This document shows, in pieces, positions 45,870 to 48,800 of a DNA stretch of 64,000 bases. Position numbers: made by a program. Position 1 is the stretch's first letter, and every line of letters begins with the position of its first letter. Source of the stretch: Escherichia coli (GTDB lineage Bacteria > Pseudomonadota > Gammaproteobacteria > Enterobacterales > Enterobacteriaceae); assembly GCF_002854065.1 (NCBI RefSeq), contig NZ_CP024147.1; one strand, 5' to 3'.

Positions 45870-48800
45870 TACAAAAATGTGTAAATTCAATAAATTGCAA
45901 TTCACCTTGTAGGCCTGATAAGCGCAGCGCATCAGGCAATTTGGCGTTGCCATCAGTCTCAGTTAATCAGGTTAGGACGATTAACCCTGCAGCAGAGACA
46001 GAACCTGCTGCGGTACCTGGTTGGCTTTTGCCAGCACGGAGTTACCGGCCTGCTGGATAATCTGCGCTTTCGACATGTTGGACACTTCGGTCGCATAGTC
46101 GGCGTCCTGAATACGGGACTGCGCTTCGGACAGGTTGGTAGTGGTGTTGTTCAGGTTGGTAACCGCGGAATCCAGACGGTTCTGGATAGCACCCAGGGAT
46201 GAACGGAATTTGTCGATGGAGCTGATAGCTTCATCCAGGGCAGCCAGAGGATCTTTGGTTGCAGTGCCTGCACTGGTGGTTTCAGTGGTCAGTTTGCCTG
46301 TAGAGTTAACATAAGCCTGTGCCCCAACAGTAGCTGCAAATTTACCAGTTGCACCTGCGCCATTTGAAGCTACAGTTACTGTACCGGTATCCTTATCGAC
46401 GTTGTAGTTGATAGTGTAAGATGCGGTTGTGGTGAGCTCTTTGTCTGCATCAGTATAGGTGTCATTCGAATTACCAGCACCATTAGTATTCACACCACCG
46501 AAGGACGCCGTTGCAGACTGAATACCTGTATTATACTTAATTGTCGCACCAGTAACTGCTGTGTTAGCCGTTGCAGCACTCTGCACTGTGCTCAGTACAG
46601 TATCAGCGCTTACAGTTTTGGTGTAGGTTACGCCAGAAGTTGCCGCTGCACCAAAGTTATAAGTTGTGCCAGACAGCTGGATAGAACCAGTTGTCGCTAA
46701 GGTACTACCGCTAGCAAACAGATCGGACAATTTCGCTGAAGATGCAATGCCGGCGTTGTTTGTAGATAGGTTACCAGTGGCGTCCAGGTACGCGGCTTTA
46801 CCACCGATGGTCACATCGCCATTAGCATCTACATCAAACTTCACATCACCAGTACTACGAGTATAAACACCTGATGCAGTAGTGCCAGCCGCTGGTTTCA
46901 GAGTATTCGCAAAGTTAACAACATCGCCATCTGCAACTGTTGCTTGAGTGGTGAAGTTCCCTTTAGCCGCATCATAAGTATAGATCGCAGCACTCGAGCC
47001 AGTAGTAGTAACTGTATCTCCGGTTTTCAGGCGAGACAGTGCATCGCTAGCGCTGAGTGCTGTATTGTTTGTGGTCACAGCATAAGGACCTGTTCCCGTT
47101 GCACCAGCAGCGGTCAGATCGCTGACTGTAGCAGCTTTGTTCGCAATAGTGCCTTTGCCATTAACGTTGAAACCATTCAGCCCCAGCGTATCTGAGTCAA
47201 TTTTCTTCAGATCAATCGTGATAGTCTGGCCGTCATTCGCACCAACCTGAATTTTCATCGAACCGTCTTTCGCCAGTACGTTCACACCGTTGAACTGGGT
47301 TTGACCGGATACGCGGTCAATTTCGTCCAGACGGGATTTGATTTCGTCCTGAATGGAGTCCAGATCCGAATCGGAGTTAGTCCCGGTAGAAGCCTGAACC
47401 GTCAGTTCACGGATACGCTGTAAGTTGTTGTTGATTTCGGACAGCGCGCCTTCAGTGGTCTGTGCAACAGAAATACCGTCGTTGGCGTTACGTGCAGCCT
47501 GAGTCAGACCTTTAATGTTAGAGGTAAAACGGTTAGCAATCGCCTGACCCGCTGCGTCATCCTTCGCGCTGTTAATACGCAAGCCAGAAGACAGACGCTC
47601 GATAGAACTCGACAGCGCAGACTGGTTCTTGTTGATATTATTTTGAGTGATCAGCGAGAGGCTGTTGGTATTAATGACTTGTGCCATGATTCGTTATCCT
47701 ATATTGCAAGTCGTTGATTACGTATTGGGTTTCCACCCGTCGGCTCAATCGCCGTCAACCCTGTTATCGTCTGTCGTAAAACAACCTTTAGAATTTTTTT
47801 CACAAACAGCCATTTTTTGTTAGTCGCCGAAATACTCTTTTCTCTGCCCCTTATTCCCGCTATTAAAAAAACAATTAAACGTAAACTTTGCGCAATTCAG
47901 GCCGATAACCCCGGTATTCGTTTTACGTGTCGAAAGATAAAAGGAAATCGCATGGCAAGTATTTCATCGCTGGGAGTCGGGTCAGGTCTGGATTTAAGTT
48001 CAATCCTCGATAGCCTCACCGCCGCGCAAAAAGCGACGCTAACCCCTATTTCAAATCAGCAATCGTCGTTTACCGCTAAACTTAGCGCCTACGGTACGCT
48101 GAAAAGCGCGCTGACGACTTTCCAGACCGCCAATACTGCATTGTCTAAAGCCGATCTTTTTTCCGCCACCAGCACCACCAGCAGCACCACCGCGTTCAGT
48201 GCCACCACCGCGGGTAACGCCATCGCCGGGAAATACACCATCAGCGTCACCCATCTGGCGCAGGCGCAAACCCTGACCACGCGCACCACCAGAGACGATA
48301 CGAAAACGGCGATCGCCACCAGCGACAGTAAACTCACCATTCAACAAGGCGGCGACAAAGATCCGATTACCATTGATATCAGCGCGGCTAACTCGTCGTT
48401 AAGCGGGATCCGTGATGCCATCAACAACGCAAAAGCGGGCGTAAGTGCGAGCATCATTAACGTGGGTAACGGTGAATATCGTCTGTCAGTCACATCAAAT
48501 GACACCGGCCTTGATAATGCGATGACACTCTCGGTCAGCGGTGATGATGCGCTACAAAGTTTTATGGGCTATGACGCCAGTGCCAGCAGCAACGGCATGG
48601 AGGTCTCGGTCGCCGCCCAGAATGCGCAGCTGACGGTCAACAACGTCGCCATTGAGAACAGCAGCAACACCATCAGCGACGCGCTGGAAAACATCACCCT
48701 GAACCTGAACGATGTCACCACGGGCAACCAGACGCTAACCATCACTCAGGACACCTCCAAAGCGCAAACGGCGATTAAAGACTGGGTGAATGCCTATAAC

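Follow-up and report, generated by a model that had tools for sequence, protein, structure and literature searches.

An H45 flagellin allele with H7-type outer domains at the fliC locus of Escherichia coli

The stretch of DNA analyzed here, hereafter the window, is a 64,000-nucleotide chromosomal segment of Escherichia coli (contig NZ_CP024147.1, assembly GCF_002854065.1) whose flagellin gene, fliC, is the H45 allele. The termini of the encoded protein are those of a canonical flagellin, and the central region between them has no detectable sequence similarity to that of K-12, aligning instead along its whole length with the outer domains D2-D3-D4 of H7-type flagellins. This homology suggests that H45 is one of the flagellins that probably surround the filament core with a sheath of paired outer domains. 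We place the probability of the explanation as a whole, comprising a chromosomal H45 fliC, outer domains of the H7 type, a sheath proposed by analogy and the recombination of antigenic cassettes, at roughly 0.93.

Identity of the flagellin allele

The list of open reading frames (ORFs) places the fliC coding sequence at 45981..47687 on the minus strand, where it encodes 568 amino acids plus a stop codon. K-12 MG1655 FliC, translated from NC_000913.3, has 498, and both lengths agree with the initial annotation, made from the sequence alone. The termini, described there as canonical, are recognized by Pfam as Flagellin_N (residues 5-140, E 1.5e-46) and Flagellin_C (residues 482-566, E 1.5e-31). 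The NCBIfam profile NF005953 matches residues 1-568 over its positions 1-548 with 814 bits, against a cut-off of 619. These terminal domains, the profile score and a locus with a sigma-28 promoter place the protein among the FliC/FljB flagellins. Its conserved N-terminal part (residues 1-175; 47163..47687, minus strand) comprises D0/D1 helices and a β-hairpin, with helices 2-99 and 106-128 in an AlphaFold2 (AF2) model; the conserved C-terminal part (residues 471-568 with the stop codon; 45981..46277, minus strand) comprises D1/D0 helices, modeled at 480-532 and 540-567. Between them lies the predicted surface-exposed central region with the H45-specific outer domains, D2-D3-D4 homologues of H7-type flagellins (residues 176-470; 46278..47162, minus strand), which with one extra base is the interval 46277..47162 originally flagged. 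This middle is rich in T, S, G, A and N, as had been remarked, with 19.7% T, 16.9% A, 11.5% G, 8.8% S and 7.5% N (~64% in total). Tandem Repeats Finder detected no internal repeats in fliC, so the extra length does not stem from internal repeat expansion.

The proposal that the host carries a non-K-12 H-antigen allele was correct, and the allele is H45. The fliC DNA is 100% identical to the copies in strains 100416 (human stool, Gambia) and CUWW06 (wastewater), both annotated "FliC/FljB family flagellin", and 98.4% identical to that of MIN10, whose record title reads O126:H45 and whose protein differs at two residues (A241S, V399A). Across the central region, DNA identity to MIN10, TW11681 and IAI39 is 98.3-98.9%, and 98.3-98.8% for the latter two alone; TW11681 is of serotype O19:H45 (PMC6630672) and IAI39 is O7:H45:K1 (PMC8281228). 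The central region was found by blastn in 85 of 5,426 complete E. coli genomes, every copy being at least 98% identical and 16 of the 85 at least 99% identical, and a sensitive blastn of the same genomes returned no intermediate or related central alleles beyond these 85 copies. H45 is thus a discrete type without intermediates in the species. Carriers include IAI39, which belongs to phylogroup F, and H45 strains are known in phylogroup B2 too (PMC3158064). The exact protein is already public in 144 contigs, under names that include UniProt Q9S0T5, and its 90% protein cluster has 297 members, among them Shigella boydii and S. dysenteriae entries; the members read differ from the window FliC by 2-5 amino acids. 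As judged from these sequences, the allele is H45, already catalogued, and represents ordinary, well-documented variation between strains. Among the sequences read, Val399 (window positions 46491..46493) is confined to the exact variant of the window; the other 568-residue members of the cluster that were read have Ala399.

Divergence from the K-12 flagellin

Alignment to K-12 by blastn drops out across 46261..47160, ending at 46260 and restarting at 47161, and this gap approximates the flagged interval; the terminal coding parts of fliC and the flanks align at 96-100%. The central 295 residues give a best BLASTP E-value of 0.43 against K-12, which is not significant, so the high-identity match to the K-12 H48 flagellin that the initial annotation had set against its own proposal is absent. 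Its phrase "divergent central domain" holds in that the region differs from that of K-12, but understates the case: there is no similarity to detect, and the domain is of the H7-like, three-domain type instead. In K-12 the outer domains are like those of Salmonella FliC; they form no sheath and share no structural similarity with those of H7 (PMC8931119).

DNA divergence from K-12 is ~0.5-1.5% in the flanking genes, 10.5% in the N-terminal coding part of fliC and 11.3% in the C-terminal coding part, and the centre is unalignable. Mismatches are dense over 46182..47526 and become sparser out to ~45767 in the fliC-fliA spacer. The interval 47527..47802, which covers the first ~160 nt of fliC (47527..47687), the upstream region and the sigma-28 promoter, is free of K-12 differences. 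Comparison with the flanks, suggested earlier as a means of delimiting the recombination tract, thus confirms the flagged centre, but the raised divergence extends past it on both sides.

Domain class of the central region

The central 295 residues align end to end with three flagellins, those of Achromobacter sp. MFA1 R4 (7SQD, phmmer E 1.9e-38), enterohaemorrhagic E. coli (EHEC) O157:H7 (7SN4, E 1.8e-32) and Azotobacter vinelandii (9N59, E 1.1e-28), with an identity of ~46% to both H7 and Achromobacter. Pfam PF12445 "FliC" is found on residues 326-472. The AF2 model, for which 70 homologues were used, has a mean predicted local distance difference test score (pLDDT) of 81; in the central region its block means are mostly about 85-96, falling to 75-80 at residues 371-400. 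When this model was searched against the PDB with Foldseek, the best matches were H7 (7SN4, top), Azotobacter (9N59), H6 (7SN7) and Achromobacter (7SQD), and Salmonella and K-12 chains ranked well behind these filaments.

The flagellins of H7, H6 and Achromobacter possess three outer domains, D2-D4 (PMC8931119; Kreutzberger et al. 2022). In their filaments half of the outer domains are turned 180 degrees relative to the rest, and D4 pairing between distant subunits builds an outer-domain sheath, which stabilizes an intermediate waveform and lengthens tumbles (PMC8931119). The geometry of the sheath varies, being a dimer in H7, a tetramer in Achromobacter and a tetramer with a seam in H6, and mutation of N319 and N323 in H7 disrupts both sheath and motility (PMC8931119). 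The counterpart of this D4 dimer-site motif in H45 is G305-N306-L307-S308-T309-N310-N311-A312-G313, encoded at 46749..46775 on the minus strand; H45 reads GNLSTNNAG where EHEC H7 reads GNLTTNNAG (residues 318-326), and N306 and N310 correspond to H7 N319 and N323. Among the 70 homologues L307 and N310 are invariant, G305 is present in 69 and T309 in 68. Because the D2-D3-D4 homology is accompanied by both asparagines of the D4 dimer site, H45 is filed with the sheath-forming flagellins. By homology, then, H45 belongs to the H7-type, probably sheath-forming, class, and the formation of a sheath by H45 itself would follow by analogy.

Several points weigh against this explanation. The global template modeling scores (TM-scores) of the AF2 model to solved chains are modest (0.35-0.57), which we tentatively attribute to differing inter-domain angles. 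N306 is replaced by V in about half of the 70 more distant homologues, so it is not universally required. The flagellins for which a sheath has been demonstrated, those of H7, H6 and Achromobacter, are only ~46% identical to H45 in the central region. Hu and Reeves (PMC7018530) put H45 in a Firmicutes-dominated cluster that is far removed from the main groups of E. coli flagellins. The H45 typing is itself based on three labelled genomes and not on the gene of the type strain, 4106-54 (GenBank AY250023, listed in PMC4753304). Finally, an intact fliC and promoter do not prove that the strain is flagellated. As for the literature, a text search for the electron-microscopic morphotype of H45 led to one paper, PMC7018530, in whose passages it is not given, and a search of PMC11532411 by term found no mention of H7-type structures.

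Relatives outside E. coli

The central region was used in a word-indexed search for relatives in other taxa, and closer ones than those listed here may exist. The nearest found outside E. coli and Shigella is a flagellin of Atlantibacter hermannii (P0018), with a central identity of 65%, followed by those of Variovorax and Roseateles at 52-56% (P0020-P0042), a Pantoea entry at ~51%, Salmonella enterica entries, including subsp. diarizonae, at 46-49%, and Achromobacter xylosoxidans at 42-47%. As traced by sequence similarity, the outer-domain family spans Enterobacterales, Burkholderiales and, through Azotobacter, Pseudomonadales. The flagellins of Atlantibacter, Variovorax and Roseateles are closer to the H45 centre than that of E. 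coli H7 (46%), but too distant to be recent donors. The clustering of H45 in PMC7018530 is at odds with the end-to-end alignment to H7 and proteobacterial flagellins found here.

A bolder proposal, which we advance only tentatively, is that H45 filaments bear a sheath that has never been visualized, possibly with a symmetry of its own, and that the surface cassette may have come from outside the genus. Entry from another genus is suggested because Atlantibacter and Variovorax are nearer to H45 than H7 is, and because H45 is an outlier among E. coli flagellins in PMC7018530. If true, H45 would offer a small natural test case for the transfer of sheath-forming flagellin domains between genera.

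Allele replacement and selection

Strains 81EVA and ST536 O21:H9 are among the closest to the window without H45, their fliD-yedE flank being 99.3% identical to it, and each holds a 670-residue flagellin in the fliC slot, with alignment to the window lost over 46290..47126. This flagellin is called H9 here from the name of one strain. The presence of a different flagellin in near-matching flanks indicates that diversity at this locus arises by whole-allele replacement and not by gradual change. Five H45 genes from different lineages differ by 0-1.7% in the central region, which is comparable to their flanks. The ratio of nonsynonymous to synonymous polymorphism (pN/pS) among them is 0.03-0.06 for the whole gene and 0.06-0.14 for the centre, and almost all changes are synonymous. 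Within H45, fliC is under strong purifying selection. The initial annotation had described fliC central domains as a site of horizontal replacement and immune-driven diversification; allele replacement is what we observe at this locus, but the low pN/pS values do not bear out diversification within H45. The pattern is one of old, stable antigen types exchanged by recombination without continuing diversification within a type, and it fits the general picture drawn in PMC7018530.

Proposed model of the H45 filament

These observations can be assembled into a model. The gene fliC would be transcribed from the FliA-dependent promoter that it shares with K-12, and its product is the flagellar filament subunit, whose N- and C-terminal D0/D1 helices make up the filament core. 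The D0/D1 domains of flagellin contain segments recognized by the export chaperone FliS and by TLR5. The exposed surface, by which the H45 antigen is defined, is formed by residues ~176-470 and is a D2-D3-D4 outer region of the family that includes the flagellins of EHEC H7, enteropathogenic E. coli (EPEC) H6, Achromobacter and Azotobacter. Dimerization of D4 between distant subunits would then wrap the core in an outer-domain sheath; by extension from H7, in which the sheath stabilizes an intermediate waveform, tumbles would be prolonged. The allele is placed at this locus by homologous recombination within the conserved ends and flanks of fliC, which swaps whole antigenic cassettes between lineages.

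Alternative explanations

The outer domains of H45 could be homologous to those of H7 and nevertheless sheathless, standing as independent surface domains on a filament that swims like that of K-12. We regard this as possible but doubtful. The argument for it draws on the central identity of only ~46% to sheath-forming flagellins, the variation of N306 across the wider family, and the evolutionary lability of the interfaces, whose geometry differs among H7, Achromobacter and H6 (PMC8931119). On the other side, no large gaps interrupt the alignment of the whole D2-D4 region with three solved H7-type filaments, and both H7 D4-interface asparagines are kept within their surrounding G-x-L-x-T-N motif. 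A second alternative, which we judge improbable, is a silent or decaying fliC, an allele of a non-motile lineage without current function. Such decay does occur elsewhere: H45 fliC is split by the insertion sequence (IS) IS2 in strains G1/2, G6/7 and G8 (three human isolates), an internal stop makes fliZ an annotated pseudogene in the enterotoxigenic E. coli (ETEC) challenge strain TW11681 (L007, 8767..9318), and the 90% cluster has members from Shigella, which is reputed to be non-motile. In the window, however, fliC has an intact ORF, and there is no difference from K-12 in its promoter region, in its first 160 nt or, over 44672..45671, in fliA. Long intact ORFs stand at the fliD, fliS and fliT positions, and the flhDC-che-mot region matches K-12 collinearly at 98.8% identity.

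Two further explanations concern the origin of the central region, and we consider both very improbable. According to one, it is a K-12 (H48-like) domain that has drifted by point mutations under immune selection. This was the general framing of the initial annotation, and the two proteins are similarly rich in T, A, G and S, but neither BLASTP nor blastn finds significant similarity between domains whose lengths are 295 and ~226 residues. H45 is clearly homologous to H7-type domains, which are structurally unlike those of K-12 (PMC8931119), and the pN/pS within H45 is the opposite of what ongoing diversifying selection produces. Moreover, we found neither a chain of intermediate alleles nor a K-12 outer-domain structure that superposes on the model. 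According to the other, the window carries a new or mosaic H type, such as a recombinant of two known central regions. V399, unlike the A399 of all other cluster members read, and the minority sub-branch formed by the 16 of 85 genomes at or above 99% identity could be taken in its favor. Against this, fliC aligns collinearly over its full length with labelled H45 genes (98.4-100% identity), its 2-5 amino acid differences are spread along the protein with no block of other ancestry, and the exact protein has already been deposited. The H45 allele with H7-type outer domains remains our preferred explanation.

Organization of the locus

The window is collinear with K-12 MG1655 1,955,355-2,017,854 at ~98-99% identity (blastn), and spans the flhDC-mot-che region, fliC and the fliE-fliI operons. 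As in K-12, fliC sits between fliA (44942..45661) and the divergent fliD-fliS-fliT operon, in the gene order dcyD-tcyJ-fliZ-fliA-fliC / fliD-fliS-fliT-amyA. A putative sigma-28 (FliA) class-3 promoter of fliC, TAAAGGTT-N11-GACGATAA, was read off the sequence at 47764..47790 on the minus strand. The sigma-28 consensus is TAAAGTTT-N11-GCCGATAA, from which each element departs by one mismatch, and the promoter would be expected to function as it does in K-12. A terminator scan identified an intrinsic-terminator-like hairpin of 7 G-C pairs followed by a T run at 45790..45806 (minus strand), ~175 nt past the fliC stop codon and at the end of the 3' untranslated region (UTR). In the K-12 annotation fliX lies directly downstream of fliC, and the position and ~97% identity of the 3' UTR here suggest that it is equivalent to the source of the K-12 FliX small RNA. 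The fliC-fliA spacer (45662..45980) is 319 bp long in the window, K-12, MIN10 and TW11681, and ~165 bp in IAI39 and DCE7; the difference of ~154 bp falls in the FliX-yielding region of the K-12 fliC 3' UTR.

The GC content of fliC, 0.47-0.49 against about 0.50-0.54 nearby, dips slightly, and foreign origin was not argued from base composition, the dip being too slight to be a useful signal. Nor is a hit in pDCE7-1 evidence of plasmid transfer of H45, as that record carries the whole chromosomal neighborhood. This record, NZ_CP090612.1 "plasmid pDCE7-1" (420 kb), holds sdiA-tcy-fliA-fliC-fliD-amyA-yedE and is probably a chromosomal fragment or a misassembly.

Elsewhere in the window, an islet of ~4 kb between yedK and fliE (54598..58575) contains a tandem pair of leucine-rich-repeat genes resembling yedN. 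A 768-bp IS1 (55545..56312), flanked at 55536..55544 and 56313..56321 by a 9-bp target duplication, TAATTACCC, interrupts the first of them (54647..56563, minus strand), and the second (57381..58496) is disrupted, as it also is in K-12. Of yedL, only the C-terminal part is present (56944..57243). This exact IS1 insertion was found in no complete E. coli genome searched, and in the near-identical CUWW06 and 100416 the first yedN-like gene is intact. The islet is shorter in K-12 and absent altogether from the compared strains with the 670-residue (H9) flagellin. The IS1 (IS1H) located upstream of flhDC in K-12 MG1655 is missing from the window, where the alignment is unbroken at ~23143..23150.

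Significance and comparison with known flagellins

The strain from which the window comes is typed as an H45 E. coli, its fliC region being all but identical to those of 100416 and CUWW06. H45 is found in ETEC, EPEC and extraintestinal pathogenic E. coli (ExPEC) lineages, so the typing call is of epidemiological use. Beyond typing, the importance of the finding is small: the allele is known, and this is a textbook case at a locus famous for allele replacement. Placing H45 in the H7-type class by homology is a modest addition, as is the evidence that the allele is conserved and not diversifying. Membership in the sheath-forming class predicts that the filament surface and tumbling of H45 would be like those of H7 and not like those of K-12.

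Among known systems, the H45 flagellins of IAI39, TW11681 and MIN10 share with that of the window the length of 568 residues, the locus and 98.4-100% DNA identity, and the window variant is set apart by A241 and V399. The K-12 H48 flagellin has the locus, promoter and flanks in common with it, and termini that are near-identical in protein, but a central region without detectable sequence similarity. The flagellins of Achromobacter sp. MFA1 R4 (7SQD), which gives the best phmmer score, and Azotobacter vinelandii (9N59) belong to the outer-domain family of H45, but come from other bacterial classes and have D0/D1 domains more diverged than those of H7; that of Achromobacter also has Glu at the N306 position and forms a tetrameric sheath. 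The flagellin of EHEC O157:H7 (7SN4) combines D0/D1 domains nearly identical to those of H45 with D2-D4 domains that align end to end, and differs in being 17 residues longer, with several insertions, in constituting another antigen, and in having a proven sheath.

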